From: a virus
Taxonomy: Duplodnaviria > Heunggongvirae > Uroviricota > Caudoviricetes
Strand: one strand, 5' to 3'
DNA length: 64,000 nt
IMG/VR virus record: IMGVR_UViG_3300013800_000001
Location: 22,065-86,064 of that record
Position numbers and translations under genes: made by a program. The notes under the pieces are model-generated. The model was not told where the DNA came from and ran no database searches. It saw only the letters and a program-made list of their open reading frames with translations. This document shows positions 91-49,766 of this stretch, one piece after another (within the stretch, counting starts at the first letter, position 1; the number at the start of each line of letters is the position of its first letter).

Positions 91-120
91 AATATACACT
101 ATGATTTTCCATTTGTCAAG
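91..120 (-). promoter_or_regulatory. Conserved phage promoter motif (TTGACA-N17-TATATT), reads leftward out of the window
   Basis: Reverse complement reads cTTGACAaatggaaaatcatagtgTATATT. It shares the 17-nt spacer with the other copies. Confidence 0.6.
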
Positions 121-134
121 TGGAATAAAAATTG

Positions 135-207
135 CTCCAACGGAAGGACTCGAACCTTCAACCATCGCCTTAACAGGGCGCCGCTCTGCCAATTGAGCTA
201 CACTGGA
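135..207 (-). tRNA. tRNA-Asn(GTT)
   Basis: Hand-folded cloverleaf. Acceptor TCCAGTG/CGTTGGA, T-arm GAAGG-TTCGAGT-CCTTC, anticodon loop CTGTTAA. Confidence 0.75.
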
Positions 208-218
208 ATATTTCCCTG

Positions 219-289
219 TTCTCCCGCCTGGAATCGAACCAGAATCTCTCGGGCTTCAACCGAGCGCTCAACCACTGAGCTACAGAAGA
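219..289 (-). tRNA. tRNA-Phe(GAA)
   Basis: Cloverleaf with D-arm GCTCAGTGGTTGAGC, anticodon loop TTGAAGC and T-loop TTCGATT. Confidence 0.75.
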
Positions 290-297
290 TTAGACCT

Positions 298-1041
298 CTA
301 ATCGAGGTCAAGTTTTAAATATCTACCCTGACTGCCTTTTAGAGTAAGCGCCTGGACAAAATGGTACTTCACTCCATCTACTTCTTTTGTCTTATGCACA
401 ACATGGTAATCTCCACCTAGTACATGTTTTACATTCGTGTCCTTAATAGCCTCAAAAAACTTTTCATATGTAGGTTTCGGTGTGACCGTGTCCTTTCTAA
501 ATGGTGGCTTTGAGATAGCAATAACGATCTTCTTATCTGTATCTAACTTCTCTTTCAGCCACTTAATCTGCTCATCTGAGAAACCGCCGTCATTCTGTCC
601 TGTTGGATTATATGAGACTTCTTCAGAGTTCATAACAATTATACGCCAACCATCCTTATCTACACTATAATATTTTGATCCTGATAGATACTTAAACCCT
701 TTATCACAATCATGATTACCGAATCCAAAGTAAACCTGTTTCCCTGATTTATCTACTGCTTTTCGAAGTTTTTTATCATACTTTTTAGCGTCTTTACACT
801 TATTGGAATTGTCACCAAGTGCGATATAAATATCTCCTGGTTGATTCAAGAATGCACTAAAATAAGATACTCCCTTGCTAGGATAAATTATATTGCCCGG
901 CGTTGACTTGCTGTAATCACGCTTTTTTTGACTTCCTGCATGGATATCTGATGTTACGTTTAATGTAAAAGCTTCTACTGATGGTAGGCTAACAAATGCA
1001 AATAAGAGTAACGACATCAAGCCTGTGAATGCTATTTTCAT
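298..1041 (-). CDS. Secreted calcineurin-like metallophosphoesterase (signal peptide MKIAFTGLMSLLLFAFVSLPSVEA). The start is moved to the Met at 1041 because the track ORF runs into a tRNA.
   Basis: Motifs IALGDN, GNHD and GDYHVVH. The hydrophobic N-terminus ends in an AxA-like cleavage site. Confidence 0.6.
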   Translation of the reverse strand: MKIAFTGLMSLLLFAFVSLPSVEAFTLNVTSDIHAGSQKKRDYSKSTPGNIIYPSKGVSYFSAFLNQPGDIYIALGDNSNKCKDAKKYDKKLRKAVDKSGKQVYFGFGNHDCDKGFKYLSGSKYYSVDKDGWRIIVMNSEEVSYNPTGQNDGGFSDEQIKWLKEKLDTDKKIVIAISKPPFRKDTVTPKPTYEKFFEAIKDTNVKHVLGGDYHVVHKTKEVDGVKYHFVQALTLKGSQGRYLKLDLD

Positions 1042-1068
1042 ATAATTTTCGATAATATTTAAACTCTG

Positions 1069-1143
1069 TGAACCATGATGGATTCGAACCATCGACCTTG
1101 AGGTTAAAAGCCCCCTGCTCTGGCCGGACTGAGCTAATAGTTC
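1069..1143 (-). tRNA. tRNA-Lys(TTT)
   Basis: Acceptor GAACTAT/ATGGTTC, anticodon loop CTTTTAA, T-arm GATGG-TTCGAAT-CCATC. Confidence 0.75.
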
Positions 1144-1261
1144 ATATTGATTCACTGATGTGTGGCCGAGTTTTACTGACTTATACCAGTCGTGAGGTAA
1201 TTAGCCTCCTCGGTGCCCGTTAGGACTGCTTCACCCTGCCACGCATCAATGAACCATCTTG

Positions 1262-1334
1262 TGATCTGAGAAGGAATCGAACCTTCAACCTTCTGGTTAA
1301 GAGCCAGTTGCTCTGCCTATTGAGCTACCAGATC
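1262..1334 (-). tRNA. tRNA-Lys(CTT)
   Basis: Acceptor GATCTGG/TCAGATC, anticodon loop CTCTTAA, T-arm GAAGG-TTCGATT-CCTTC. Confidence 0.75.
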
Positions 1335-1340
1335 ATCTTG

Positions 1341-1427
1341 AGGAGAATGAAGGATTTGAACCTTCGTTGCTTTTACACAATACAGTTTTCAAGACTGTTG
1401 CCATCAACCAGACTCGGCCAATTCTCC
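1341..1427 (-). tRNA. tRNA-Ser(TGA), class II
   Basis: 87 nt. Perfect acceptor GGAGAAT/ATTCTCC, anticodon stem ACAGT/ACTGT with loop CTTGAAA, long variable arm. Confidence 0.75.
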
Positions 1428-1478
1428 TGGAGAATGTTCCTATTGGGTATCCCCTAATCGTCACAAACAACCGTTATG

Positions 1479-1562
1479 AGGAAGACAGACTATTCGAAAG
1501 CCATTCCTTGCGGAACCCTTCCCTTAGCACGGGAGTGCAGCGCCTTGCTGCTTTATCTTCCT
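1479..1562 (-). tRNA. tRNA-Ser(GCT), class II, weak T-stem
   Basis: 82 nt. Acceptor (A)GGAAGAT/GTCTTCC(T), D-stem GCAG/CTGC, anticodon loop GTGCTAA, variable hairpin TTCC-GCAA-GGAA, T-loop TTCGAAT on a 4-bp stem. Confidence 0.55.
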
Positions 1563-1623
1563 AAATGAGGGAGTGCTATTAAGCGTCACTCAATCGCTAA
1601 ACATGACAGTACTATCATATTTG

Positions 1624-1695
1624 TTCTAGAGGTACGGATCGAACATACTCATACAGGGTTCAAAGCCCCGTGCCTTCCCATTTGGCTACTCTAGA
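1624..1695 (-). tRNA. tRNA-Gln(TTG)
   Basis: Acceptor TCTAGAG/CTCTAGA, anticodon stem CGGGG/CCCTG with loop CTTTGAA, T-loop TTCGATC. Confidence 0.7.
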
Positions 1696-1730
1696 ATATT
1701 TACAGACTGGAGGTGGAGTACCCAGAGGCC

Positions 1731-1773
1731 GTCGCCTCGCCAGTTCGTCTCTTCCATACGTCTATGGCCGGAC
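1731..1773 (-). other. Two spacer hairpins that share a GACG tetraloop (GAGGC-GACG-GCCTC and CCATA-GACG-TATGG on the minus strand)
   Basis: Both are perfect 5-bp stems with identical 4-nt loops, in the 106-nt spacer between two tRNA-Gln genes. No cloverleaf fits. Confidence 0.4.
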
Positions 1774-1802
1774 TTATACTCCCCCTTCAATCTGCAAATT
1801 TG

Positions 1803-1873
1803 TTTCAGTCCAAGGATTCGAACCTCACTTAACAGCTTCAGAGGCTGCTGTCCTACCGCTAGACGAGACTGAA
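1803..1873 (-). tRNA. tRNA-Gln(CTG)
   Basis: Acceptor TTCAGTC/GACTGAA, anticodon loop CTCTGAA, T-loop TTCGAAT. Confidence 0.7.
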
Positions 1874-1886
1874 AAATGAACTCTGG

Positions 1887-1960
1887 GGTGATCGGAGGGG
1901 CTCGAACCCTCAACGGCTCGCTTCACAAACGAGTACTCTGCCAATTGAGCTACGAACACC
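1887..1960 (-). tRNA. tRNA-His(GTG)
   Basis: Anticodon loop TTGTGAA. Extra 5' G(-1) opposite a C73 discriminator, the His identity signature. D-arm GCTCAATTGGCAGAG. Confidence 0.75.
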
Positions 1961-2148
1961 CCAGAATTCACTTGTGGACAGTGTCGGTAACGATCCGACT
2001 CTTTCTGGTTGCAAACCAGATGTGCTGGCCTTTATCACTAACCGCCCATAAATTGAAGAGTGGCCATCTAGTCCATTCAGGAGCGACCTGAGTTATCCCT
2101 TCGCTCTGCTAGATACCATTGAGGAAGGTGTTCGGCGTCTTCAATTTG

Positions 2149-2229
2149 TGGAGATAGAGAGAATCGAACTCTCGTCCGATAGAGTGCCCTTTCGGGATTT
2201 AACTACCGTCGAAACCATTGCTTATCCCC
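2149..2229 (-). ncRNA. Atypical tRNA-like element (81 nt): acceptor and T-arm present, no canonical D/anticodon arms, contains a CCC-GAAA-GGG hairpin
   Basis: Acceptor GGGGATA/TATCTCC and T-arm GAGAG-TTCGATT-CTCTC are clear. The internal part folds as GGTTT-(11 nt)-AAATC plus a CCCGAAAGGG GNRA hairpin instead of a 7-nt anticodon loop. Confidence 0.4.
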
Positions 2230-2230
2230 G

Positions 2231-2301
2231 CATAGAAACCTGGATTTGAACCAGGACTAAAGGTTTTGGAGACCTTTGTGCTGCCGTTACACTATTTCCA
2301 C
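2231..2301 (-). tRNA. tRNA-Trp(CCA)
   Basis: Anticodon stem AAGGT/ACCTT with loop CTCCAAA, G73 discriminator, T-arm CCTGG-TTCAAAT-CCAGG. Confidence 0.75.
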
Positions 2302-2431
2302 GTATTGCTTTTGCTTCTCGAAAATCTTTAGACTAAAGAAATCTTTAGCATTCCACCTGTTCTGCCACTTCATTTTATGAGGCTTACAGAGTGCACATGA
2401 TCGCTTTTTCTTTTTTAGTCTCTTTCTCATA

Positions 2432-2611
2432 CTACTTTCTTAACTCTAACTGATTCTCATTGAATATATGTAGCAACCCGTCTTTATGCTCTGCTACTAT
2501 TCTCACATCACCCTTTGTGTTGGTAAAAATAGCTACAATAATCGAGTTGAACTTATATCCACTAACTTTCTTTGCTTTATCGCCTATCTTGAATTTTGAC
2601 TTTATCTTCAT
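2432..2611 (-). CDS. Small hypothetical protein (59 aa, MKIKSKFKIGDKAKKVSGYKFNSIIVAIFTNTKGDVRIVAEHKDGLLHIFNENQLELRK) inside the tRNA array
   Basis: Translated by hand. It is one residue under the ORF-track cutoff. It looks like a KOW/SH3-like small domain and sits in a 330-nt tRNA-free gap. Confidence 0.4.
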   Translation of the reverse strand: MKIKSKFKIGDKAKKVSGYKFNSIIVAIFTNTKGDVRIVAEHKDGLLHIFNENQLELRK

Positions 2612-2630
2612 ATATTTCTTTATTTATCTG

Positions 2631-2704
2631 TAATCCTAGTCGGATTCGAACCGACGATAACCTGTCTGAAAAACAGGGGGCTTGGGCCGCTTGCCTATAG
2701 GATC
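2631..2704 (-). tRNA. tRNA-Glu(TTC)
   Basis: Anticodon stem CCTGT/ACAGG with loop TTTTCAG, T-arm GTCGG-TTCGAAT-CCGAC. Confidence 0.7.
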
Positions 2705-2709
2705 ATCTG

Positions 2710-2792
2710 TGGGAGGAGTTGGATTCGAACCAACAATGTTTCCGTGTCACGGTTTTACAGACCGCTTGCTTCACCAATTTGCATATCCGCCC
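2710..2792 (-). tRNA. tRNA-Tyr(GTA), class II
   Basis: 83 nt. Anticodon loop CTGTAAA, long variable arm, T-arm GTTGG-TTCGAAT-CCAAC. Confidence 0.7.
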
Positions 2793-2900
2793 TTTTGGAA
2801 CCTATTGCTAGGCGGCCTTTCACCCTATTGCGTAATGGGACTTCAGTAACGGATATATACGCTAACCGTTAAACCGAAAATGGCTCTTATTAATATTCTG

Positions 2901-2972
2901 TTGGCTTAACTAGATTCGAACTAGTGACCTTAGGATTAGAAGTCCTGCGCTCTTCCGCTGAGCTATAAGCCA
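2901..2972 (-). tRNA. tRNA-Arg(TCT)
   Basis: Perfect acceptor TGGCTTA/TAAGCCA, anticodon loop CTTCTAA, D-arm GCTCAGCGGAAGAGC. Confidence 0.75.
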
Positions 2973-2973
2973 G

Positions 2974-3047
2974 TAGGTTATGAAGGAGTCGAACCTTCAC
3001 TGTATGCATTTTGAGTGCATTGCGTCTGCCAATTGCGCCAATAACCC
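2974..3047 (-). tRNA. tRNA with Leu anticodon CAA but class-I (74-nt) architecture
   Basis: Anticodon stem TGCAT/ATGCA with loop CTCAAAA. A73. No long variable arm. It abuts its neighbours on both sides, so it cannot be longer. Confidence 0.6.
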
Positions 3048-3048
3048 G

Positions 3049-3120
3049 TAGGCAATGTTGGAATCGAACCAACGACTTGAAGTATATAAGACTTCATTTC
3101 TTCCACTGAATTAATTGCCT
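3049..3120 (-). tRNA. tRNA-Ile(TAT), reads AUA
   Basis: Perfect acceptor AGGCAAT/ATTGCCT, anticodon stem GAAGT/ACTTC with loop CTTATAT. Confidence 0.7.
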
Positions 3121-3213
3121 GTACGCAAGTATTCCCCCTCTATCACGATTACCAATCGGGGTCTTTCGACCTAATCACGATAGCTTCACCCGAATAGGAG
3201 GAATACCTACATG

Positions 3214-3285
3214 TTGGTAAGGAAGGAGTTGAACCTTCGACCTTAGCCGTATCAGGACTCTGCTCTACCGTTGAGCTACTCACCA
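3214..3285 (-). tRNA. tRNA-Ile(GAT)
   Basis: Acceptor TGGTGAG/CTTACCA, D-arm GCTCAACGGTAGAGC, anticodon loop CTGATAC. Confidence 0.65.
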
Positions 3286-3455
3286 ATATGGTCATTAGAT
3301 AGGTAAGGATTTGACGAGATGTGAGGCTGTAAAACCTTCTTTAATCTATCCACAGATAGAGCATTACTCGTATAGTCACCTTACATGGATTTCCTACCAG
3401 TATCTTTATCCCAACTGGTTTCAGGCGTTACTATTCCGCCACTATCTAAATCCCG

Positions 3456-3528
3456 TAGTTCCCCTGGGATTCGAACCCAGACTTTAGACATTTTAAGTGT
3501 CTTGCCTCTGCCGTTGGGCTAGAGAACC
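3456..3528 (-). tRNA. tRNA with Leu anticodon TAA but class-I (73-nt) architecture
   Basis: Anticodon stem AGACA/TGTCT with loop CTTAAAA. A73. Short variable loop. Confidence 0.6.
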
Positions 3529-3626
3529 ATTGCAATACCTTTTAATCCTATGTGCGGGGCCTCGATAATATTTATATCCAACCATGGTAACCTCACAAAA
3601 CACATTAACGGAAAAAAAGGATTTTG

Positions 3627-3707
3627 TGCGTTAGGAGAGACTCGAACTCTCAACCCTTTCGGGCACGGTTTCTAAGACCGCTGTGTAAACCGTTCCACCA
3701 CCAACGC
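3627..3707 (-). tRNA. tRNA-Leu(TAG), class II
   Basis: 81 nt. Anticodon stem GCGGT/ACCGT with loop CTTAGAA. Variable arm is a CCC-GAAA-GGG hairpin. Confidence 0.7.
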
Positions 3708-3749
3708 ATAGACTTATCGACTTATCGGCCATCGACGTATTACCATCTG

Positions 3750-3823
3750 TACGCTCTGAGGGATTTGAACCCCCGACTTTCTGGTTCGAAGCCAGACACT
3801 CTAGTCCACTGAGTTAAGAGCGT
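3750..3823 (-). tRNA. tRNA-Arg(TCG)
   Basis: Perfect acceptor ACGCTCT/AGAGCGT, anticodon stem TCTGG/CCAGA with loop CTTCGAA. Confidence 0.75.
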
Positions 3824-3949
3824 ATGTTCCCAGGCTTTCATTGGTACCTGGAGTGAGCCTGACATTAAGGGGTATAGCCCCGCATCTGACGACGCAACGT
3901 ACAACCACAATCCCGTAGTAAGGAAATGTATTCTAGTTACTTAATTCAC

Positions 3950-4046
3950 TAGTGGGGAGGAGCGCAAAGTATTACCAGTGACGCCATTCAACAGGGTACT
4001 CTATTACGCATTTCGCCTGAAGGTTTCGTAATCCCTCCCCCCCACT
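3950..4046. other. Structured spacer element: G-run (GTGGGGAGG) pairs with a C-run (CCTCCCCCCAC) about 80 nt away, enclosing repeated CGTAAT/ATTACG motifs
   Basis: It lies in the longest (about 235 nt) tRNA-free spacer of the array. No cloverleaf fits. Confidence 0.3.
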
Positions 4047-4058
4047 AAAGAACTATTG

Positions 4059-4129
4059 AGCACGATACTGGAATCGAACCAGTATATCAGGGTTTGCAAT
4101 CCTGCACCTAGCCTTTCGGTCAACCGTGC
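4059..4129 (-). tRNA. tRNA-Cys(GCA)
   Basis: Anticodon loop TTGCAAA. U73 discriminator, the Cys identity element. Confidence 0.7.
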
Positions 4130-4151
4130 TTATTTTAAAATAACTTCTTTG

Positions 4152-4225
4152 TAGTCCGTGTAGGACTTGAACCTACAACCTTCGGTATGTAACACCGTTG
4201 CTCTAGCCAATTGAGCTAACAGACC
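4152..4225 (-). tRNA. tRNA-Val(TAC)
   Basis: D-arm GCTCAATTGGCTAGAGC, anticodon loop GTTACAT, T-arm GTAGG-TTCAAGT-CCTAC. Confidence 0.7.
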
Positions 4226-4407
4226 AAATCAGGCAGGAGGGCGGCAATCCCCATCATGACTTACAGTGGGAGGGCTGTATAAGTCCCGCAGTAGAGCCTT
4301 TCTGCATTTCAACCTGGAGCGTCGTCAGGGTAACGATCCCTGTCCTTCGGTTTGGAAAACCACTATGCGTCCATGAACACCTACAACGCTTATTTTTCTA
4401 TCTTGGG

Positions 4408-4481
4408 AGCCTCCACGAGGATTCGAACCCCGGACCTACGCATTACAAGTGCGCCGCTCTGGCCAACTGAGCTATAAAGGC
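4408..4481 (-). tRNA. tRNA-Thr(TGT)
   Basis: Anticodon stem GCGCA/TGCGT with loop CTTGTAA, D-arm GCTCAGTTGGCCAGAGC. Confidence 0.7.
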
Positions 4482-4602
4482 TTATTACTAGAAATCATGG
4501 TTATCAATATGCCGTATTAGAGTTACTGATTACCATGAGCTGTGCCTACACTGGCTGGCAAGGCACTCGGTAGGGCTTCGGAATATGATCATCTCTTCCT
4601 TG

Positions 4603-4675
4603 TTGCGATAGTGAGAATCGAACTCACGTACTCCTGCTTATGAGACAGGCCTGGGGCCACTCCAGATATATCGCT
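4603..4675 (-). tRNA. tRNA with CAT anticodon (elongator Met or Ile2-lysidine type). Position 1-72 is an A-A mismatch.
   Basis: Anticodon loop CTCATAA. It lacks the three G-C pairs of initiator tRNAs. Confidence 0.65.
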
Positions 4676-4861
4676 ATATGATGTGGGCGCCTCGACCGAG
4701 GACACACATCGACTTTATCTATCCCATAAGCTGGGCTACCAACAAAACTCCAAAACTAGTATGTGCCCACATTGGCTTCTGTTAGCTAGACAGCAGCGCT
4801 TGAAGACATGGAGTGAATGTTCGTAAACCCCACTTATGAGATAGATTTTAAAATAACTGAG

Positions 4862-4932
4862 TCAGAGTACTAGGAGTTGAACCTAGGCCGAATCCTTCCA
4901 AAGGACTCGTGCTACCGTAACACTTTACTCTG
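4862..4932 (-). tRNA. tRNA-Pro(TGG)
   Basis: Perfect acceptor CAGAGTA/TACTCTG, anticodon loop TTTGGAA. Confidence 0.75.
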
Positions 4933-5015
4933 AGAGACGGATAGTTGTTTTTTCCAAGCAAGCAGCTAGGTAGGGGCTGCGATCCGTCAATGGGGCTTAA
5001 ACGCCGATATACCTG

Positions 5016-5087
5016 TGAGTCAGCCGAGAATTGAACTCGGGCCTGCTCCTTGAGAGGGAGCCGTCTTCGCCACTTGACTACAGACTC
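5016..5087 (-). tRNA. tRNA-Glu(CTC)
   Basis: Anticodon stem GCTCC/GGAGC with loop CTCTCAA, T-arm CCGAG-TTCAATT-CTCGG. Confidence 0.7.
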
Positions 5088-5190
5088 ATTTTTGGAACCA
5101 GACGTTTATAGTCCGGCGGCTCGTCTGACTTACGTGCTATAGGATGTGCACACCCCAACACTGCCGACGATGCTCTTTGATCAATTCCTG

Positions 5191-5261
5191 CGGGACATGC
5201 GAGAATCGAACTCGCACTTACTGGTAGACAACCAGGCGCGCTGCCACTACGCCAATGTCCC
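5191..5261 (-). tRNA. tRNA-Asp(GTC)
   Basis: Perfect acceptor GGGACAT/ATGTCCC. G73. Anticodon loop TTGTCTA. Confidence 0.7.
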
Positions 5262-5289: not shown

Positions 5290-5319
5290 AGTGTACATGA
5301 TGATTTTCCATTTGTCAAG
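5290..5319 (-). promoter_or_regulatory. Conserved phage promoter (TTGACA-N17-TACACT) driving the minus-strand tRNA array
   Basis: Reverse complement is cTTGACAaatggaaaatcatcatgTACACT, about 30 nt upstream of the first tRNA. Confidence 0.65.
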
Positions 5320-5325
5320 TCCCCT

Positions 5326-5360
5326 TTGTATAAAAGAAAAACCCACCGTAAGATGGGTTC
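5326..5360 (-). terminator. Rho-independent terminator for the upstream minus-strand operon
   Basis: Hairpin AACCCA-ccgtaaga-TGGGTT followed on the minus strand by TTTTCTTTTAT. Confidence 0.55.
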
Positions 5361-5665: not shown

Positions 5666-5703
5666 AATTGAAAGTGTATAAAAGTCCTATTAATTTGTCA
5701 ATC

Positions 5704-7474: not shown

Positions 7475-8179
7475 TTATATCAACATTAATGCCTTAATTA
7501 TAGCCTCCTTAAATTCCTTCATATTCCCAGAATCAGAATAGCTCACACCAAGTCCATCGGCTATTTGCCTCAAATTGGCAATCCCCTCGGGAGTGGTCGG
7601 AGCCTTCATTATCTTTCGCCTATTCTCATCATGATCCCCAATGTACAGACAATGCGCATCTCCAAGGCTTTTAGACATCTTTCGTGTCGGGTCCTTAATG
7701 CTCATAATCCTAGGAGTCTCCGTGAGGATAGTTTTTGCAACTTTTTTGATGCCTAGCCTTTTGCAAGTCCTGCGGTAGAACTCCATGTGCTGAATCTGGT
7801 CCTCACCAACGATGACAGCATCACAGTCAGAAAGGATGATATCAGCGGCCATGAGGCAGGGGTACGTAAAGAGTCCGACGTTCCCCTCCCCCTTATCCTT
7901 GAATTGGGTCATCCTTCTGAGGTCTGACATAGGAGTCACACATTGGATTTTAAACGCTAATACCGCTGCGTCTGGATTCTGCATGTAAGCCTTGCCGCCT
8001 AACTCCTCAAGTGTTTCAAGCACATTCACGACATTAATGACCGTATTGCTACCGGTTGTCTCAGCATGGTATTGGGCTACAAGCACCCTTGATTTCTTTT
8101 CTAGAGCCAACTTTAGGCCTCCTAAGTAGTTACCTAGGTGTATGCGTCCAGTCGGTTGTATGCCGTATAAGTATTTCAT
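7475..8179 (-). CDS. trpS-like: Truncated class-I aminoacyl-tRNA synthetase, tryptophanyl-tRNA synthetase-like catalytic core without the C-terminal anticodon-binding domain
   Basis: HIGH-type motif GIQPTGRIHLGNYLG. LRRMTQFKDK and LMAADIIL...VGEDQIQHMEF line up with E. coli TrpRS. KMSKS motif present. Only 234 aa against about 330. Confidence 0.8.
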   Translation of the reverse strand: MKYLYGIQPTGRIHLGNYLGGLKLALEKKSRVLVAQYHAETTGSNTVINVVNVLETLEELGGKAYMQNPDAAVLAFKIQCVTPMSDLRRMTQFKDKGEGNVGLFTYPCLMAADIILSDCDAVIVGEDQIQHMEFYRRTCKRLGIKKVAKTILTETPRIMSIKDPTRKMSKSLGDAHCLYIGDHDENRRKIMKAPTTPEGIANLRQIADGLGVSYSDSGNMKEFKEAIIKALMLI

Positions 8180-8207: not shown

Positions 8208-8237
8208 ATGTTACAGGAACATTTGGTATTTGTCAAG
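8208..8237 (-). promoter_or_regulatory. Variant copy of the conserved promoter (TTGACA-N17-TAACAT) driving the trpS-like operon
   Basis: Reverse complement is cTTGACAaataccaaatgttcctgTAACAT, 30 nt upstream of the trpS-like start. Confidence 0.55.
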
Positions 8238-8239: not shown

Positions 8240-9140
8240 GAAAGTCCTATTTTTTGCGAAAAAAATTTTGGCTTATCTGAAGCAAATAATTCAAAAAAAT
8301 GGGGGGTTAAATTTGTAGGGGTGTATGGACTTTCAAAAAATAGAAAATCTCCGTGTTGGTACCCTTCCACCACCCTATTTTCCAGACGGGACTCAGTACC
8401 GAATCACCCCCCATACCCCTATCAGCCTCGTAGTGTCCCCACTGTCCACGCTGTGTGCCCACCCACACTGTGTGCCTCTGCCTCTCACGCCCTGCCACCG
8501 TGCTCTCTACCACTTGATTGGTGTATATAACTATTAACCATACACAAGAGTATGTACATATACAGAGATGAGGCTACAGGTCTCTATCATTGCGATCATG
8601 TGTTCGTTACCGTACGTGGGCGTTGCTACCTGGTGGGGGTAGAGTACGTGGGCGTCACAAGGATGGAGGTCATACGTCAGGTAGTAGGCAATGCATGGTT
8701 CAAGAGAATGCGTCTCAACCTTGCTTACTCTATGACAGTGGATAGGTGAGTGGCTCTGTTGAGGGATTTACCACTTGAGTGGTGTTATGATTTAGGTCGA
8801 TTTAAAATCATGACGAGTGTTTGTGTGTTAGAGAAAAGTTAGAGTCGGTTGCTCTGATAACAGAGAATATCCGACAAAATGCTTGTAATAGGTATTACAG
8901 AGTGGCTAATAAACGCCAGCTGAATCAATCAACTACTTACGAAAGCAAAGACCATATCCACAGCAAACGTGATACATCTCACGAAATATATAATATACAC
9001 TGTGTGACTCGTCTGCTAGATAAGTAAAGACTCAGAGAGCATAAGCCACTGTCAAATGCCTACTACAAGCAAATCTCGCTTTATGCGGGTTAAGCGCTTG
9101 CACCGTAACAACTGCAATATCATCAATCTAAAATAATCCT
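8240..9140. other. About 0.9-kb non-coding region with atypical C/pyrimidine-rich, strand-biased composition and short repeats
   Basis: Repeats: CACGCTGTGTGCC / CACACTGTGTGCC, GTACGTGGGCGT x2, CCACTTGA(T/G)TGGTG x2. Only short, odd-composition ORFs. It lies between divergent transcription units. Confidence 0.45.
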
Positions 9141-9656
9141 ATGCCATTGCATAAAACATATATCCTCATAAAAGACCAACCTAGAATTGGTAAAGAGGCT
9201 GGAGATTACTATAACCATGAGTACTCCAATAGTATTGAAGACCTGCTAGCTCGAGGGATTATTGAAGAAGAAATTGATGAGTCTAAAGAAGTAAATAATT
9301 TTAAAGATAATATTATGTCACAAGAAACAATGCAAGAAGTAACTCCAGTATCACAAAACGACGGACTCAAGAACTTTATCATCGGTAAAGTATGGGCTCA
9401 GTCACAAGACGGTTCACGAGCTGGTTCTATCAAGATTAACCGTTCTCTACCAGCAAAGCTCGTCATCACACCAGGTATGACTCTTTTCCTCACAGCCAAC
9501 AAAAAGCGTGAAGGAAAGCAGGATGCAGATTATAGCGTATCAGTGCTCCTTCCAAAAGAGACTGCTGACCGTCTTATCGCAGCCCAAAACTTGGCAGAAG
9601 CAAACATCAAGAATGTAGAATTTGAGAACCAGAGCCAGGCTCATGGTCAAGAGTAA
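9141..9656 (+). CDS. Hypothetical protein (171 aa)
   Basis: ORF track. First gene of the plus-strand block. Confidence 0.5.
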   Translation: MPLHKTYILIKDQPRIGKEAGDYYNHEYSNSIEDLLARGIIEEEIDESKEVNNFKDNIMSQETMQEVTPVSQNDGLKNFIIGKVWAQSQDGSRAGSIKINRSLPAKLVITPGMTLFLTANKKREGKQDADYSVSVLLPKETADRLIAAQNLAEANIKNVEFENQSQAHGQE

Positions 9657-9756
9657 TACATAACACTCAACATGGGGATTAAAACCTCATGTAGGTGGCA
9701 AATTCGCACTCTAGTAGTGCTTGAGCGTTCTATGGGCATCGTATAAGAGCCCTAAC

Positions 9757-9801
9757 TAAAGCTGTTTTAAGAATTCACCCTCTTTTAACAGCTTTTTTTA
9801 T
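9757..9801 (+). terminator. Rho-independent terminator
   Basis: AAGCTGTT ... AACAGCTT hairpin followed by TTTTTTATT. Confidence 0.5.
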
Positions 9802-9835
9802 TGTCCACAAATTAACAAAAATACGTTTCAAACAT

Positions 9836-10084
9836 ATGAAACTCAAATATATCATGACAGACCAGCGTTACTTCATCATGTTCCCAATCACTCTCAATCA
9901 CGATGAAGTAGCTGCTGCTAATCGTCGTTTGCTCCCAGGAGAAGTCAGAAGTGCTGGATTCGTCAACTTTCGCATGAATGATGATGAAATACTAGAAGCT
10001 GTGCCTTTTGGAAAAAGCATTTCACTCAAGATGGAAGCCCATCCTGATGATGAAGGAATAATCAACAGAGCCATGAATCTCTAA
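9836..10084 (+). CDS. Hypothetical protein (82 aa)
   Basis: ORF track. Confidence 0.5.
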   Translation: MKLKYIMTDQRYFIMFPITLNHDEVAAANRRLLPGEVRSAGFVNFRMNDDEILEAVPFGKSISLKMEAHPDDEGIINRAMNL

Positions 10085-10088
10085 TCAT

Positions 10089-10334
10089 ATGACATACGCA
10101 AAAGCCAAAGAAATGGCCTCAAATGCAGGATACAAACAACCAAAAGAAGTAGCTGAAGCATATGACCATTCTGAGTTCTGGAGATACTTCAGCAAAGCAA
10201 TGAAATGGCCAGAATATCTCCCAGGAACAGATATACCCACATGGTACGTCAAATACCTATCACATAAAGGCCACATACTCACCGGCAACTCTCCTGAAAG
10301 CTGGTTCAAATGGGTAGGATTAACTCAAAACTAA
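10089..10334 (+). CDS. Hypothetical protein (81 aa)
   Basis: ORF track. Confidence 0.5.
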   Translation: MTYAKAKEMASNAGYKQPKEVAEAYDHSEFWRYFSKAMKWPEYLPGTDIPTWYVKYLSHKGHILTGNSPESWFKWVGLTQN

Positions 10335-10345
10335 AATAATAAACT

Positions 10346-11038
10346 ATGGGACTACGATTCGACCACGGGAAGGTAATAATCATTAACATCACAACAAGAT
10401 ATCAATATGAATATCACTGCAAAGAATTAGAAAAACTAGGATACAGATGGCGTAGCAAAGAAAAAATGACAGAAAAGCCACTCTGCGAAGTCAGCCTTCC
10501 AATGGCTTTCTACATAGAAGCAAACAAAGAAGTTGGCTATGGAAGCAGACAATTAACAGAAAATTCTCTATTCAAGCCATTTACGATAGCTCAATTAAAA
10601 AACACTTATCATTCAACAAATAATATTATGCCTCCAAAAACAACACCAAAAGCTTCTGATATCAAAGTAGGAGCCACATTTATCAATCAATATGGACATC
10701 AGGTCACTGTTACAGAGATTTATTACACCCATAAAGAAGTAAGTGGATTCAAATTCAATGACGGTGAAACAGCTGGCCCAGGATGGACATTTAGAAACAT
10801 GAAATTCATCAAAAACCCAGGTCCTACACCAAAAGCACCCAAAGCAAACTTCCTCCTCAAATATGACCTTGATGAAGATCCTATCGAAGAATACGAGACA
10901 ATGAAGCAAGTTGATGACCGCATCAAATATCTTGTAGAAAACGTTCAAGAACTCAAAAAAGAATCAATTGTTATCTATGAAATAAAGAAAAAGCATAGAG
11001 TGACCATCTCTACCCGTATCACCAAAAGAAACGCTTAA
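10346..11038 (+). CDS. Hypothetical protein (230 aa)
   Basis: ORF track. The antisense ORFs inside it are rejected. Confidence 0.55.
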   Translation: MGLRFDHGKVIIINITTRYQYEYHCKELEKLGYRWRSKEKMTEKPLCEVSLPMAFYIEANKEVGYGSRQLTENSLFKPFTIAQLKNTYHSTNNIMPPKTTPKASDIKVGATFINQYGHQVTVTEIYYTHKEVSGFKFNDGETAGPGWTFRNMKFIKNPGPTPKAPKANFLLKYDLDEDPIEEYETMKQVDDRIKYLVENVQELKKESIVIYEIKKKHRVTISTRITKRNA

Positions 11039-11071
11039 ATCAAACAAATAATTAATATAATATATAAATTT

Positions 11072-11545
11072 ATGTCAAAAGCTTACAAAAACCTCACAAA
11101 GCTCCAAGTAGAAACAGCTGAACAAGTGCTTCGAGAAGCTCTCCGAAAAAGAACCAAAGAAATCGCAGACAAAAAAGAAGCAGAAGCTCGAAAGAAGCAC
11201 GAAGCGGCAATGAAGGCAATCATCACAAAAGTAAAGAAATTTACTGATGAAATCATGAAAGATAAGAAGAAAATCGAAAAAGATCCAAACTTCTACCTAA
11301 TACTCGGATCAAATGAATACAGCGATCCAATTCGTGACCTAGACCCAACAAGAGGAGCGCTCACATCAGAAAAACTACTTAATGTCAGAAAGAAAGACGG
11401 ACATCACTACAATGAGTCTGTTTTCACTCCAGACACAACCAAAGAAGAAGAAGTCATCAGAAACTTCATTCTTGAGCTCAAATTGGGTACAGCAGTCATG
11501 GAAGATATCAAGCAAATCATGAAAGTAATCGAATCAATCAAGTAA
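11072..11545 (+). CDS. Hypothetical Lys/Glu-rich coiled-coil protein (157 aa)
   Basis: ORF track. Confidence 0.55.
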   Translation: MSKAYKNLTKLQVETAEQVLREALRKRTKEIADKKEAEARKKHEAAMKAIITKVKKFTDEIMKDKKKIEKDPNFYLILGSNEYSDPIRDLDPTRGALTSEKLLNVRKKDGHHYNESVFTPDTTKEEEVIRNFILELKLGTAVMEDIKQIMKVIESIK

Positions 11546-11555
11546 TTATCCTTTA

Positions 11556-11590
11556 ACAGAGGGCTAGACTAACCTCTAGCCCTCTTAAAT
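11556..11590 (+). terminator. Stem-loop, possible weak terminator
   Basis: GAGGGCTAG-actaacct-CTAGCCCTC hairpin. The downstream tract is AT-rich rather than a clean T-run. Confidence 0.3.
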
Positions 11591-11598
11591 ATAAATAT

Positions 11599-11880: not shown

Positions 11881-12123
11881 ATAAATATATGAAATGGCTA
11901 CAAAACTACCTTTGCTACTGGGATCTAAGACATAGACTCACAAAAATAGGCTTAGGAAAAGGTTATATATGTTTCCATTGCTACAAAAAGTTCCCTTACA
12001 AACATTAATCTAAAACTATGTTAATCGAAATAGGACCAAATCTATCAGTAGCACTACAAGGATTCGCTTTTGCTTTAGGATTCGTAGGATTCTGGTGGGC
12101 AATAACTCGCAATTAATAAATAT

Positions 12124-12651: not shown

Positions 12652-12656
12652 AATAT

Positions 12657-13028: not shown

Positions 13029-13036
13029 ACATATAT

Positions 13037-13282: not shown

Positions 13283-13286
13283 TTCT

Positions 13287-13721: not shown

Positions 13722-13725
13722 AATT

Positions 13726-23252: not shown

Positions 23253-23282
23253 ATGTTACATGATTATTTTCTATTTGTCAAG
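23253..23282 (-). promoter_or_regulatory. Variant conserved promoter (TTGACA-N17-TAACAT) driving the minus-strand replication operon
   Basis: Reverse complement is cTTGACAaatagaaaataatcatgTAACAT, about 150 nt upstream of the initiator gene. Confidence 0.55.
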
Positions 23283-23695: not shown

Positions 23696-23725
23696 CTTGA
23701 CAAATGGAAAATCATCATATACACT
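23696..23725 (+). promoter_or_regulatory. Conserved promoter (TTGACA-N17-TACACT), first of a tandem pair
   Basis: cTTGACAaatggaaaatcatcataTACACT. Confidence 0.6.
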
Positions 23726-23742: not shown

Positions 23743-23772
23743 CTTGACAAATAGAAAATATGGGTGTACGAT
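23743..23772 (+). promoter_or_regulatory. Variant conserved promoter (TTGACA-N17-TACGAT), second of the tandem pair
   Basis: cTTGACAaatagaaaatatgggtgTACGAT, about 30 nt upstream of the sigma region-4 gene. Confidence 0.55.
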
Positions 23773-23803: not shown

Positions 23804-24031
23804 ATGTTTCCAATTAAGATAAAGATAGAGGCCGAAAAGGTAGAAAAGGCCTTTAGAGAGCGAAAAGAAATGCTCACGGAAAAAGAAATTGAGGTTATTA
23901 CCCGTTTCTATGGTATAGACGATCGTGTACGACACACACTTGAAGAAATAGCAGCCATGTACCAGGTGACTCGTGAACGAATCCGTCAAATAAAATCGGG
24001 AGCATTGAAAAAGCTCGAAGTCAAGAAGTAA
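23804..24031 (+). CDS. Free-standing sigma-70 (RpoD) region-4 domain protein (75 aa)
   Basis: LTEKEIEVITRFYGIDDRVRHTLEEIAAMYQVTRERIRQIKSGALKKL lines up almost residue-for-residue with sigma-70 region 4.2 (RFGI...TLEEVG...VTRERIRQIEAKALRKL). Confidence 0.8.
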   Translation: MFPIKIKIEAEKVEKAFRERKEMLTEKEIEVITRFYGIDDRVRHTLEEIAAMYQVTRERIRQIKSGALKKLEVKK

Positions 24032-29485: not shown

Positions 29486-29515
29486 CTTGACAAATGGAAA
29501 ATCATCATGTACACT
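29486..29515 (+). promoter_or_regulatory. Conserved promoter (TTGACA-N17-TACACT) upstream of the LemA gene
   Basis: cTTGACAaatggaaaatcatcatgTACACT. Confidence 0.65.
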
Positions 29516-36054: not shown

Positions 36055-36084
36055 CTTGACAAATGGAAAACTAGGGTGTACACT
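36055..36084 (+). promoter_or_regulatory. Conserved promoter (TTGACA-N17-TACACT)
   Basis: cTTGACAaatggaaaactagggtgTACACT. Confidence 0.6.
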
Positions 36085-42417: not shown

Positions 42418-42714
42418 ATGAAAGGTTACGATATTGATGGTGTTTTGAGTTTAGGCATAGAGCCATCAGGTGAATATGTTGTTATATCTGGGAGAACTAT
42501 GGCTGAGTATGATGAATTAGTGAAATATCTTGCTCAAAAAGCCCCTGTATACATAAGATGCACAGGTGAATATGGTGATAGGAAAGATGCTGGAAAATTT
42601 AAGGCAAAAATGATCAATATACTTGGAGTAACAGAGTTTCACGAAGACGATCCTATCCAGGCAGAAATCATAAAAAAAGCCTGTCCAAAGTGCCAAGTAG
42701 TTATGCACAAATAG
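42418..42714 (+). CDS. Hypothetical protein (98 aa)
   Basis: ORF track. Confidence 0.5.
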   Translation: MKGYDIDGVLSLGIEPSGEYVVISGRTMAEYDELVKYLAQKAPVYIRCTGEYGDRKDAGKFKAKMINILGVTEFHEDDPIQAEIIKKACPKCQVVMHK

Positions 42715-42718
42715 AAAA

Positions 42719-42748
42719 CTTGACAAATGGAAAATCATCGTGTACACT
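42719..42748 (+). promoter_or_regulatory. Conserved promoter (TTGACA-N17-TACACT)
   Basis: cTTGACAaatggaaaatcatcgtgTACACT. Confidence 0.65.
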
Positions 42749-46470: not shown

Positions 46471-47009
46471 TAACAGTAGGATTAGACCTTTCACTAACAA
46501 AAACAGGATATGCGATTGTCGATTCAGATGGCAATGTTTTAGCATCTGGAGTCATAAAGTCGAAACCATCCGGTGACAAACCTATTAATGAGGTGAGACG
46601 TATTGTAGATATATCTGAGACTATAATGGAGAAAATAGATGAACACTGTCCGTCAGAAGACCCAGCAATGGTAGCTATCGAAGGGCTGGCATTCATGGCA
46701 AAAGGGACATCATTGGTACAGCTATCTGGCCTAAACTACCTAACTCGCATACTCTTGAGCCAGTTTGAATGGCCATTCATCATTGTTGCCCCGACATCTT
46801 TGAAAAAGTTCATCACTGGTTCAGGAAAGGGCGACAAAGATATGATGTCAATGCAGATATATAAAAGGTATGGCTTTGAAGCATTAGACAACAATGAAGC
46901 TGACGCATATTCTCTAGCTGTATGTGCATTAGCAGTACTAGATAAGCCATTAATAGAGCTAGGTGTCCCTCAAAAAGAGGTATCAACATTATTAAAAAAA
47001 CAATTATGA
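46467..47009 (+). CDS. RuvC-like Holliday junction resolvase
   Basis: N-terminus MITVGLDLSLTKTGYAIVD matches the RuvC/YqgF fold start. A downstream acidic residue lies in EADAYSLA. Confidence 0.65.
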   Translation: MITVGLDLSLTKTGYAIVDSDGNVLASGVIKSKPSGDKPINEVRRIVDISETIMEKIDEHCPSEDPAMVAIEGLAFMAKGTSLVQLSGLNYLTRILLSQFEWPFIIVAPTSLKKFITGSGKGDKDMMSMQIYKRYGFEALDNNEADAYSLAVCALAVLDKPLIELGVPQKEVSTLLKKQL

Positions 47010-47158
47010 ACGATCAACCAACCCCAGATGAGACAAATCTAGTGTTACCAATTATTTGCCCGTCTTGTTCGCATGAGATTGAACTTTCAATGCTATTTGA
47101 ACTCTTACCTCCTAAGACAAACAATGTTGAAGTAAAAGACGCTATTGTAGAAGCCTAA
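47006..47158 (+). CDS. Small protein (50 aa, CPSCSHE)
   Basis: Hand translation. ATGA overlap with the resolvase stop. Confidence 0.3.
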   Translation: MNDQPTPDETNLVLPIICPSCSHEIELSMLFELLPPKTNNVEVKDAIVEA

Positions 47159-47172
47159 AACAATAGAAATAT

Positions 47173-47619
47173 ATGAATAATGAAGAAAAAAATGTATATC
47201 CTAGGTCATTACAGCCTGATTTAAAGCCTGTTATTTCTGCGCCTGTAGTAGAAGAGGCTCCAAAAAAGGTAGAGAAAAAAGAGTTATGTTCTCATAATTA
47301 TGTTCCATATGAGCTTGTTTCATTTGAAGAACCTGATCGTTTTACCAAAAAGTATATAACAGAGTCTGCCGTATGTATTGACTGCGGATACTTTAAAAAA
47401 ATACTTAATAGTAAAAAACAGGCATTTTTTGTACAAGGATCTGAATCAGTAATAGGTTCATCTGGATCTGGAGGATCTGGAGGATCAGTAGGACATTCAT
47501 ACGGCGGTTATCCATATGGAGTTAGGATAGCAAATCCTGGAAATTCAGGTCAGTTGTCTAGATTATCATCAAACAGGACGAATTTTTCTTCACATAGATA
47601 TACGACTACAATATGGTAA
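47173..47619 (+). CDS. Hypothetical protein with a Gly/Ser-rich segment (148 aa)
   Basis: ORF track. Confidence 0.5.
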   Translation: MNNEEKNVYPRSLQPDLKPVISAPVVEEAPKKVEKKELCSHNYVPYELVSFEEPDRFTKKYITESAVCIDCGYFKKILNSKKQAFFVQGSESVIGSSGSGGSGGSVGHSYGGYPYGVRIANPGNSGQLSRLSSNRTNFSSHRYTTTIW

Positions 47620-49736
47620 CTCTAAAACACCTACAAATAAATGACTTTCTAAGTCACAAAGAAACAGAGATATCATTTGATAATAATGAGAAGATTCTTA
47701 TAGATGGAAACTCTGGATCAGGGAAAAGCTCTATCTTTGATGCAATTGTATGGGCTCTTTATGGTGTTGGAAGAGCTGATAACCGATCACTAGTCCGCAA
47801 GGGAGCAAAAGAGGCTAGAGTAAAGCTTTCTTTAAAAAAAGACGATGAAGTAATCGTTGTTTTTAGAAGCGTATCTGATAAAGGAAAGCACACTATTGCT
47901 ATCTTTACTGAACAGCCTGATGGGTCACTTCTTTCATACCCCCTTTCTGGTGTACGTGAAATACAAGCGTGGATAGAAAGAGACCTTATTGGTGCTAGCT
48001 ATCTACTTTTTGTGAATAGTATCGCCTATGTTCAGGGGAACTCAGATAGTTTTGTCTCTCAGGGAGCACCAAAAAGGAAAGAGCTTCTTTTAGAGATTGT
48101 TAAGGCTGATGACTACCAGAAATACTACGAAAAGTCACGTCAGACGCTTCAAAAACTAGAAAGTGAGCTTATGCTACTATCTGGACAGTATGGAGAGCTA
48201 GATAGGCATTTTAAGTCTATATTCAGTCGTCGTGGGGACAAAGTAGAACAAGAAAAGATAATAAGAAACTCTCAGAAGTATATTGATGGCCTAGAGCCTG
48301 AATTAAAGTCACTAGAAGATGAAAGATCATCATTACTGGTTGCTCTTTCAGAAGCAGAGTACATCGAAAGAGACATAGCCAGTATTCAGAGTGAAGGTGC
48401 TTATTTGAGGAAAGAATTAAGTGAAAGACTAGAAAAGATAAAAGAAAAGCCTATTCTTTTGCCTTTGCTTGAGCTTATACCAGAGAGGGAGAAAAATATA
48501 GAAGAAGCAAAAGATAGGCTTCTATATTTAAGGGATTCTTTGAAATTTGTTTCTGATATAGAAGCAAAAAGGAACGAGTTCTTGAGTCGTAAACCGAGTG
48601 TTGATGAATTTAACATAAAGGCGATAAGTGACATGTTAGATCAAGTTAAGGTACTAGAACAAGAACCTACTTGTCCTAGTGGAAATTCATGTCCATATTC
48701 TGGGAACCATGCTCCAAAGATAGCTAGTCTTAAAGAAGATATTAAGATTCGTAATGCCACGCTTTTAGAGCAAACAATGGCTCTCGCTAATTGGGAAGCT
48801 GATAAGGCCAGTCTTCCTCCTAAACCTGATATAGAGACCATTCTAAGCGACATAGATCACACCGAGAAGCTCATAAAAAAGCTAGAGGCAGAACTAGAGG
48901 ACGTCCTTTCTATCAGGAAAAAGATAGAAATGATAGACCAGGTTGCTACAGAGATACCTTCATTGAAGGCTGATATATCAGCTAACGAAATTAGGTATGC
49001 TGAATTGAAAGAAAAGCAAGAAAAGTCTGATTTAGAAACAAATAAAAAACAGTCAGATATAGTCTCTAAAAGGATAGATGAAATACGGTCATCAATAAAT
49101 GAGGCAAGCAACGCTATTACAATGGCAAAAGCTACTATTGAGACCATTACAAGGGATGAAGAGGAGATGAACGATATCAAAGGAAAGATTGATGATATCA
49201 AGAAGAACAGAATGCCAGTTCTTGGAGATAACATCAATAAAGTTCGTCTTGTTAAAGAAGCATTTGGAGAGAAAGGAATAAAAACTATGGTAATTGATTA
49301 CCTTCTTAGTTCTCTAGAGGACAAAGTTAACTCTATACTAAGCAGACTTTCTGACTTCCAGATAAGATTAGACACTCAGAAAAAGTCGGCTGACGGTGAA
49401 AGTATCATTGAAGGACTCTTTATTACAGTTTGCAATGAAATCGGTGAAGAAATGCCATTTGAGGCTTATTCTGGCGGAGAAAAGGTAAGAATAATATTTG
49501 CCATATCAGAGGCTCTTGCATCTCTAAGTAGTAAAAACATTGGATTTAGACTTGTAGACGAAGCTGTGTTAGCGCTTGATGATAATTCTTTAGAGTCATT
49601 CATGGATGTAGTTGGAACATTGCTCACAGATTTTGATCAAGTGATGTTCATTTCACATATTCAAGGTGTAAAAGACTTGTTTGAAAAGAGAATAAAAGTG
49701 AAAAAGCATAATGCTATTTCTAGGATAGAAAAATAA
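47613..49736 (+). CDS. sbcC: SbcC/Rad50-like ABC ATPase
   Basis: Walker A GNSGSGKSSIFDAI. Long coiled coil with a CxxC zinc hook (CPSGNSCPYSG). C-terminal signature/D-loop (SGGEKV...LVDEAVLALD). Confidence 0.85.
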   Translation: MVTLKHLQINDFLSHKETEISFDNNEKILIDGNSGSGKSSIFDAIVWALYGVGRADNRSLVRKGAKEARVKLSLKKDDEVIVVFRSVSDKGKHTIAIFTEQPDGSLLSYPLSGVREIQAWIERDLIGASYLLFVNSIAYVQGNSDSFVSQGAPKRKELLLEIVKADDYQKYYEKSRQTLQKLESELMLLSGQYGELDRHFKSIFSRRGDKVEQEKIIRNSQKYIDGLEPELKSLEDERSSLLVALSEAEYIERDIASIQSEGAYLRKELSERLEKIKEKPILLPLLELIPEREKNIEEAKDRLLYLRDSLKFVSDIEAKRNEFLSRKPSVDEFNIKAISDMLDQVKVLEQEPTCPSGNSCPYSGNHAPKIASLKEDIKIRNATLLEQTMALANWEADKASLPPKPDIETILSDIDHTEKLIKKLEAELEDVLSIRKKIEMIDQVATEIPSLKADISANEIRYAELKEKQEKSDLETNKKQSDIVSKRIDEIRSSINEASNAITMAKATIETITRDEEEMNDIKGKIDDIKKNRMPVLGDNINKVRLVKEAFGEKGIKTMVIDYLLSSLEDKVNSILSRLSDFQIRLDTQKKSADGESIIEGLFITVCNEIGEEMPFEAYSGGEKVRIIFAISEALASLSSKNIGFRLVDEAVLALDDNSLESFMDVVGTLLTDFDQVMFISHIQGVKDLFEKRIKVKKHNAISRIEK

Positions 49737-49766
49737 CTTGACAAAAGCCAACTTAAAAAATACACT
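49737..49766 (+). promoter_or_regulatory. Conserved promoter with a degenerate spacer (TTGACA-N17-TACACT)
   Basis: cTTGACAaaagccaacttaaaaaaTACACT, about 10 nt upstream of the deformylase gene. Confidence 0.55.

Follow-up and report, generated by a model that had tools for sequence, protein, structure and literature searches.

Putative sigma-70-type promoters with a two-layer conserved spacer in the genome of an uncultured phage

The DNA analyzed here, referred to below as the window, is a stretch of 64,000 nucleotides (nt) from IMG/VR record IMGVR_UViG_3300013800_000001 (positions 22,065 to 86,064), which forms part of an uncultured phage genome (Caudoviricetes) of ∼100 kb. The window carries 26 tRNA genes (134-5261, minus strand), a replication operon encoding a DnaD-like loader, a DnaC-like loader and a primase-polymerase/DnaB helicase, and a tail and lysis module (51.6-64 kb, minus strand). 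It also encodes ParB, AAA and SNF2 proteins, LemA, Band-7, RecA, SbcCD, RuvC and deformylase. Dispersed among these genes is a repeated putative promoter motif, composed of a TTGACA -35 hexamer, a 17-nt spacer and a TACACT-like -10 hexamer. Ten copies had been listed in the original prediction and all of them were found at the coordinates and on the strands given there; one more copy of the same architecture, located at 5673-5701 on the minus strand, had been missed. The eleven sites are the following:

91..120, minus strand: promoter copy 1, C TTGACA AATGGAAAATCATAGTG TATATT, just past the last tRNA gene (tRNA-Asn, 134-207) and facing out of the left edge of the window.
5290..5319, minus strand: promoter copy 2, exact consensus, heading the 26-tRNA array (first tRNA Asp, from 5261).
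5673..5701, minus strand: promoter copy 3, TTGACA AATTAATAGGACTTTTA TACACT (full site TTGACAAATTAATAGGACTTTTATACACT), with no C at -36 and a non-consensus spacer.
8208..8237, minus strand: promoter copy 4, C TTGACA AATACCAAATGTTCCTG TAACAT, heading the operon 7475-8179(-), whose first gene is class-I tRNA-synthetase-like.
23253..23282, minus strand: promoter copy 5, C TTGACA AATAGAAAATAATCATG TAACAT, heading the replication operon.
23696..23725, plus strand: promoter copy 6, C TTGACA AATGGAAAATCATCATA TACACT, the upstream half of a tandem pair.
23743..23772, plus strand: promoter copy 7, C TTGACA AATAGAAAATATGGGTG TACGAT, the downstream half of the tandem pair, 31 nt before the gene of a small protein with a sigma region 4 only (the region-4-only gene).
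29486..29515, plus strand: promoter copy 8, exact consensus, heading an operon with LemA, TPM phosphatase and Band-7 genes.
36055..36084, plus strand: promoter copy 9, C TTGACA AATGGAAAACTAGGGTG TACACT, heading an operon that runs to RecA.
42719..42748, plus strand: promoter copy 10, C TTGACA AATGGAAAATCATCGTG TACACT, heading an operon with SbcD-like, RuvC and SbcC-like genes.
49737..49766, plus strand: promoter copy 11, C TTGACA AAAGCCAACTTAAAAAA TACACT, with a non-consensus spacer, heading a deformylase-like gene.

The anatomy of the sites is highly uniform. TTGACA is exact in 11/11 sites and the spacing is exactly 17 nt in every case, as originally predicted. The -10 hexamers are of the class TAnAnT (TACACT in seven sites, TAACAT in two, TATATT and TACGAT in one each), with A at position 2 and T at position 6 throughout, and a C precedes TTGACA in all ten sites listed earlier. 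The statement that seven sites have near-identical spacers was slightly generous: six spacers (sites 119, 5318, 23281, 23697, 29487 and 42720, each named here by a single coordinate) lie within two mismatches of the consensus AATGGAAAATCATCATG, whereas the others share less with it. Sites 23744 and 36056 have only the first 9-10 nt in common with AATGGAAAATCATCATG, and sites 5701, 8236 and 49738 only AA(T/A).

Matches to the motif were counted in the window and compared with the numbers expected from shuffled sequence (100 shuffles for the 29-mer). The 29-mer consensus gave four matches at up to three mismatches (each with 0 or 1) compared to 0.00 expected, and TTGACA-N17-TACACT gave seven matches at up to one mismatch, all of them exact, compared to 0.41 expected. 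The 8-mer CTTGACAA occurs exactly ten times (3.5 expected), only at the ten sites listed earlier. The sequence ACAAATRGAAA has 18 matches at up to one mismatch (6.7 expected); eight of its nine exact copies lie inside promoters and the ninth abuts one. In a generic sigma-70 scan the sites ranked at or among the top scores. Weak sigma-70-like sites numbered 29, 37 and 52 in three 20-kb chunks of positions 1-60000, compared to 50.4, 51.5 and 54.6 in shuffled sequence. Their low number in the first two of these counts, together with the lack of CTTGACAA outside promoters (0 compared to ∼3.5), hints at avoidance of spurious promoters.

The motif was not found at a similar density within genes. All eleven sites are intergenic, and thus confined to the 11.3% of the window that is non-genic according to a simple gene map. 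Each of them is co-oriented with the next gene or with the tRNA array, so that the claim of matching orientation was upheld, the array being included by way of site 5318(-), which lies ∼29 nt upstream of the first array tRNA and is preceded by an intrinsic-terminator-like hairpin (5339-5360, minus strand). Together, sites 23281(-), 23697(+) and 23744(+) make up a control region from which the replication operon and the rightward genes diverge, and sites 29487, 36056, 42720 and 49738 head successive co-directional operons with membrane, recombination and repair functions. The ATG of a 91-amino acid (aa) gene (5665) is situated 7 nt past the -10 box of copy 3, which is a leaderless geometry, and that of the deformylase-like gene (49775) is situated 8 nt past the -10 box of copy 11, a near-leaderless one; this arrangement predicts leaderless or nearly leaderless mRNAs from promoters 5701 and 49738. 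The tail module (51.6-64 kb) and the next 4.8 kb, ∼17 kb of tail genes altogether, contain no site. The sequence to the right of the window was followed for these further 4.8 kb through Logan contigs, while on the left side the contigs end inside the window. Taken together, the anatomy and the placement of the sites lend good support to their identification as promoters.

Outside the hexamers and the spacer little is shared. Conservation stops sharply near -37 and -7, and the flank from -37 to -41 tends to GGGGA/GGGGG. There is no conserved A/T tract of the kind expected for an UP element at -40 to -60, and the canonical extended -10 TGn at -15/-14 is absent ('TG_before_second: no' at all sites). 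The sites have no dyad symmetry, and no second class of intergenic motif was seen in the window. Readings as sigma-54 promoters, extended -10 promoters or dyad operators were checked by eye and did not fit.

DNA was recovered from eight related phages, whose primase-polymerase proteins are 61-83% identical. Ordered by the identity of this protein to that of the window, the relatives are L039 (83%), L040 (74%), L158 and L203 (72%), L122 (67%), L159 and L160 (64%), L161 and L048 (64%) and L162 (61%); two more, L202 and L204, were fetched through RecA (78% and 72% RecA identity). The control region of L039 is ∼93% identical to that of the window at the DNA level and is therefore too close to be informative. 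The relatives carry promoters of the same class at orthologous places, i.e., before the region-4-only gene, the replication operon, LemA and the SbcD operon, which further supports the identification of the sites as promoters. The resulting family consensus is C TTGACA AAwRGwAAr nnnn GGGTR TAnAnT, and the positions that are invariant across the family are exactly the sigma-70 hexamer positions.

Within the spacer, two layers of conservation were distinguished. The -35-proximal half (-29 to -21) has a between-genome identity of 0.69-0.70, compared to 0.26 for random sequence. In the distal half (-20 to -13) the identity is 0.32-0.36 between genomes and 0.47-0.51 within them (permutation p<0.0005). 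The sequence found there is ATCATCRTG in the window and L039 and GGGTA in most relatives; the window sites 23744 and 36056 retain a GGGTG distal half. In the L203 orthologue of copy 8 (position 2230 of L203) the distal spacer differs from that of the window. Since orthologous promoters carry the distal half of their own genome, the pattern points to concerted evolution, and the sharp ends of conservation near -37 and -7 are better accounted for by selection on the promoter than by passive conversion tracts. Distant relatives, whose primase-polymerases are ∼40% identical, also have a perfect TTGACA, embedded in a genome-specific sequence, C TTGACA AGT...AAATGTGC TATACT. A search for relatives based on SNF2 returned only distant, unrelated loci without the motif.

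From these sequence data we consider that the sites are probably sigma-70/sigma-A-type promoters read by the primary-sigma holoenzyme of the host, and that the spacer pattern reflects selection combined with concerted evolution. Sigma region 4 would read C-TTGACA and sigma region 2 would read TAnAnT, the 17-nt spacer setting the geometry. Transcription would start at these sites, with early or middle timing, and the genes driven would be non-structural: the 26-tRNA array, the tRNA-synthetase-like operon, the replication operon, the region-4-only operon and the four co-directional operons. The conservation of the spacer would then represent two layers of selection on promoter performance. The proximal half, AAwRGwAA (-29 to -22), would extend the -35 element throughout the family and be of ancestral origin; the polymerase would probably read it, or else it would act through DNA shape. 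The distal half (-20 to -13) would drift between phages, being kept uniform in each genome by concerted evolution. The region-4-only protein may not be needed for promoters of this type, because a genome-specific consensus is also seen in the distant relatives, in which the gene was not found within ±10 kb.

Several observations weigh against such an assignment or narrow it. The first concerns the host. No Shine-Dalgarno-like motif (GGAG, GAGG, AGGA or AAGG) was found upstream of any of 75 genes (0/75), which points to a host from an unusual lineage that may have promoter rules of its own. T occupies position -1 in 95% of ATG starts (63 ATG-start genes at or beyond position 5300), positions -5/-6 are enriched in A, the sequence upstream of the starts is depleted of G, and the stop codons comprise 50 TAA, 16 TAG and 4 TGA. 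These features suggest that the host uses Shine-Dalgarno-independent translation initiation, and such an atypical host, without Shine-Dalgarno sequences and with T-preceded ATGs, leaves room for more novel readings. The host was not found through RecA homologues, cluster names or a literature search. Metagenomes are rich in homologues of the primase-polymerase and RecA of the window. Megablast against cultured phages with 8 kb of the window gave no match, and tblastn with the SbcC-like and primase-polymerase proteins gave identities of ∼30% or lower, with no cultured relative.

The second group of observations concerns the motif itself. TG directly adjoins the -10 hexamer at -14/-13 and is shifted by one position from where the canonical extended -10 element would have it. 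The distal half changes in coordination at orthologous promoters, as would also result from co-evolution with a trans-acting factor. The two promoters without the motif (5701 and 49738) are presumably functional, so the motif defines a subclass, and promoter activity as such would not require it. An exact 20-mer search of IMG/VR gave no match, and the 15-mer CTTGACAAATGGAAA gave at least 117 single matches, spread over numerous viral contigs that are unrelated; 22% of the CTTGACAAATGGAAA sites were accompanied by a -10 box at the 17-nt distance, compared to 29% and 8% for two scrambled controls. The idea that AATGGAAA following the -35 box is a general phage promoter sub-element was rejected, as 22% falls within the range of the controls (8-29%). 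The motif is thus specific to the phage family of the window, and a universal preference of the polymerase is not supported; a preference of the host's own polymerase for the proximal motif is possible.

The sites belong with the phage promoter sets of extended consensus, of which the T4 early promoters are the textbook case. The latter display 'additional regions of consensus' beyond the sigma-70 elements (PMC2988021). As in the window, T4 early promoters, and similar strong phage promoters for the host sigma-70 polymerase such as those of T5 and T7 A1, occur as many near-identical copies with excellent sigma-70 hexamers and extra consensus, and they drive pre-replicative genes and tRNAs (PMC2988021). 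In contrast to the T4 early promoters, the sites described here have no A/T-rich UP element and their upstream flank is G/C-rich (GGGGAC), they lack the canonical TGn and have TG at -14/-13, their -10 box is a conserved non-consensus TACACT, and it is the -35-proximal part of the spacer that holds their extra consensus; their host also appears to do without Shine-Dalgarno use. The middle promoters of T4, which depend on a MotA box and on AsiA (sigma appropriation), similarly combine a phage-specific element near -30 with a host -10 box. However, the MotA box replaces the -35 hexamer, whereas every site in the window has a perfect -35 hexamer with the extra element downstream of it. No MotA or AsiA homologues were seen.

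The original prediction suggested that a second factor reads the spacer. Such a reader is possible: the conserved proximal half and the homogenization of the distal half in each genome are in its favour, whereas the lack of dyad symmetry and of an identified binding protein is against it. In one form of the proposal the spacer is an operator: a phage DNA-binding protein would occupy positions -29 to -13 in those sites that have the consensus spacer (∼8-9 of the 11) and would turn them off or on at a fixed moment, site and protein co-evolving in each genome. We regard this as a tentative alternative, unlikely but deserving attention. The candidate proteins are an XRE-type helix-turn-helix (HTH) protein (14595-14954), whose gene is conserved in a neighbouring block, or another early protein. 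An operator would explain why the proximal half is conserved in the family without being a general promoter feature, and why the distal half is homogenized within genomes at orthologous promoters; it would also agree with the two motif-less promoters forming a separate class with leaderless geometry. Spacer-like sequence outside the promoters is of relevance in this respect, and one such feature was recorded:

8333..8360, plus strand: spacer-like sequence without usable -35/-10 hexamers, AAAAATAGAAAATCTCCGTGT / AAAATAGAAAATCTCCGTGT, within a 0.9-kb non-coding region.

This sequence is kept in L040, together with TACCGAATCACCCCCC, and is possibly a further site for whatever reads the spacer. 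In addition, an extra exact copy of ACAAATAGAAA at 42707-42717(+) lies directly upstream of the -35 box of site 42720, where it makes the unit ACAAATRGAAAA repeat at a 16-nt period. It is the only exact copy of the motif outside promoters, and the near-absence of free-standing copies elsewhere argues against an operator or another second reader. So do the lack of dyad symmetry and of a protein linked to the site, the existence of extended-consensus phage promoter sets for which no second factor is known, and the genome-specific spacers of distant relatives in which no region-4-only gene was found within ±10 kb; moreover, covariation with a protein would require more genomes than the seven or eight compared.

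The closest precedent for an operator of this kind is found in the stoperators of Cluster A mycobacteriophages (L5, Bxb1), which are asymmetric sites of 13-17 bp present in many copies (PMC9283540, PMC6550527). Like the sites in the window, stoperators are oriented with transcription, overlap an early promoter and have a genome-specific consensus (PMC9283540, PMC6550527), and the homogenization of the distal half within genomes has its parallel in the stoperators and repressors of this cluster (PMC6550527, PMC9283540). However, they are located mostly away from promoters, where they stop elongation, whereas all copies but one lie inside promoters in the window. Stoperators also have a cognate repressor, in contrast to the sites described here, for which none was identified.

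A further candidate trans-acting factor is encoded next to the tandem promoters:

23804..24031, plus strand: region-4-only protein, 75 aa, candidate trans factor, first gene after the tandem promoters.

Residues 24-71 of its 75 match Pfam Sigma70_r4 (PF04545) with E=1.3e-11, and in the PDB the protein matches best to region 4 of two primary sigma factors, S. aureus SigA and E. coli RpoD, with which it shares the recognition helix VTRERIRQI residue for residue. Homologues are encoded in the early region of seven relatives (L039, L040, L158, L159, L161, L162 and L204), and in all of them the helix is invariant at an overall identity of 59-90%. Because the helix is intact, the protein is predicted to read TTGACA and not the spacer, and it is therefore an unlikely reader of the spacer. 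It could compete at promoters, dock on the beta-flap or activate another class of promoters. Free-standing region-4 proteins of 66-120 aa were numerous in metagenomes in an exhaustive search, while a word-index search gave two matches. No region-4-only gene was found within ±10 kb in the distant relatives (∼40% primase-polymerase identity).

It is quite unlikely, in our view, that the region-4-only protein governs the sites through the -35 hexamer, either by competing with the holoenzyme, which would give feedback or host shut-off, or by docking on the beta-flap in place of region 4 of the host sigma; in both versions the AAwRGwAA flank would give the preference for phage promoters. Consistent with such a role, the protein corresponds to region 4.1/4.2 of a primary sigma factor in free-standing form, with a helix that has remained unchanged, its gene is always located in the early region, and every promoter of the class has a perfect TTGACA. 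On the other hand, an isolated region 4 reads the hexamer and not the spacer, the gene of the protein is itself dependent on these promoters, and the distant relatives have perfect TTGACA hexamers with no such gene nearby. Proteins of the LtrA type, which are small Sigma70_r4-like HTH proteins serving as late activators in phages of Gram-positive bacteria, have been proposed to recognize specific promoters (PMC3753634). They resemble the region-4-only protein in being small phage proteins with a Sigma70_r4 domain. However, LtrA has only limited similarity to region 4 and is encoded next to terS, whereas the region-4-only protein is a close copy of the primary sigma and is encoded in the early region, next to replication genes and not in a terS/late operon, in the window and in the seven relatives. 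That the LtrA family activates late operons (PMC3753634) would point away from the promoters considered here.

In the most far-reaching reading, which we consider improbable, the promoters and the region-4 protein would be one system in which a detached -35-reading domain recognizes C-TTGACA together with AAwRGwAA. The protein may then shut the promoters off or, from the beta-flap, let a polymerase that responds to other signals use -35/-10 promoters. What speaks for the beta-flap version is that Shine-Dalgarno sequences are completely absent, a sign of an atypical host. If true, either version would represent a form of phage transcription control that has not been described before.

A 188-aa protein encoded next to the region-4-only gene was considered as a region-2 partner (a split sigma) and rejected, as it matches phrog_1706, annotated as 'CRISPR/Cas system associated'; its single-sequence AlphaFold model was unusable (predicted local distance difference test (pLDDT) 39.8). 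Among the metagenomic proteins returned by the search with the region-4-only protein, P0243, P0244, P0247 and P0252 (589-1692 aa) were observed to have an unusual architecture with 6-9 tandem sigma region-4 domains.

That the repeat is not a promoter at all, but a mobile or recombination element, a packaging or replication site, or an RNA structure or terminator, is very improbable, even though it is the most prominent non-tRNA repeat family in the window: conservation is confined to -37 to -7 with the hexamers in exact register, every copy is oriented with the next gene, the family-wide invariants are the sigma-70 hexamer positions, there are no flanking target duplications or associated genes, and RNA folding is no stronger than in shuffled sequence (z-scores -0.14 to +1.34), on which grounds an RNA structure or terminator was rejected.

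With the sites regarded as promoters read by the host polymerase, they map 11 transcription units of a widespread uncultured phage lineage with hundreds of metagenome homologues. The 8-mer CTTGACAA, found in the window only at promoters, is a highly specific promoter marker, and the two-layer spacer constitutes a natural experiment on what promoter spacers encode. Binding of the region-4-only protein to the sites is a testable hypothesis. If the polymerase alone reads the spacer, the sites represent an ordinary, if tidy, phage promoter family.

Some further features of the window were noted. The region 8240-9140, in which the hexamer-less spacer-like sequence lies, is a partly C-rich non-coding stretch of ∼0.9 kb between divergent gene blocks. 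Islands within it are kept in L040 (CTATTTTTT, TGGGGGGT, AAAATAGRAAAATCTCCGTGT and TACCGAATCACCCCCC), and Rfam returned nothing at the gathering threshold for this region. A genome end or packaging site, an origin and an RNA of unrecognized type are all conceivable here. The adjacent block 9141-19295(+) contains ∼25 small genes, with a strong AT skew of +0.28 to +0.38 and a low GC content of 0.34-0.38, and holds the XRE HTH gene and a MoxR-AAA/VWA gene pair. No CTTGACAA promoter is present inside this block, which is closed by a bidirectional terminator at 19318-19339.

Within the gene of the DnaD-like loader (22005-23099, minus strand), TGGATGGTTCACTTTTGACACTTCT occurs in tandem at 22619-22695, as two identical copies and one degenerate copy. 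These copies look like the iterons of a replication origin located within an initiator gene. In the tRNA array, an 84-nt match to the Rfam transfer-messenger RNA (tmRNA) model (60.1 bits; gathering score 47) is located at 2146-2229(-), between tRNA-Ala and tRNA-Trp. ARAGORN made no call at this position, and the element is probably tRNA-like or an extra long-arm tRNA.

Finally, L202 (17101-17629) and L204 (17116-17620) carry, beside RuvC, genes with Acb2/Tad1-hairpin and Tad2-like domains, which are possible anti-defence genes judging by these domains. In the window, small unannotated genes occupy the corresponding place.

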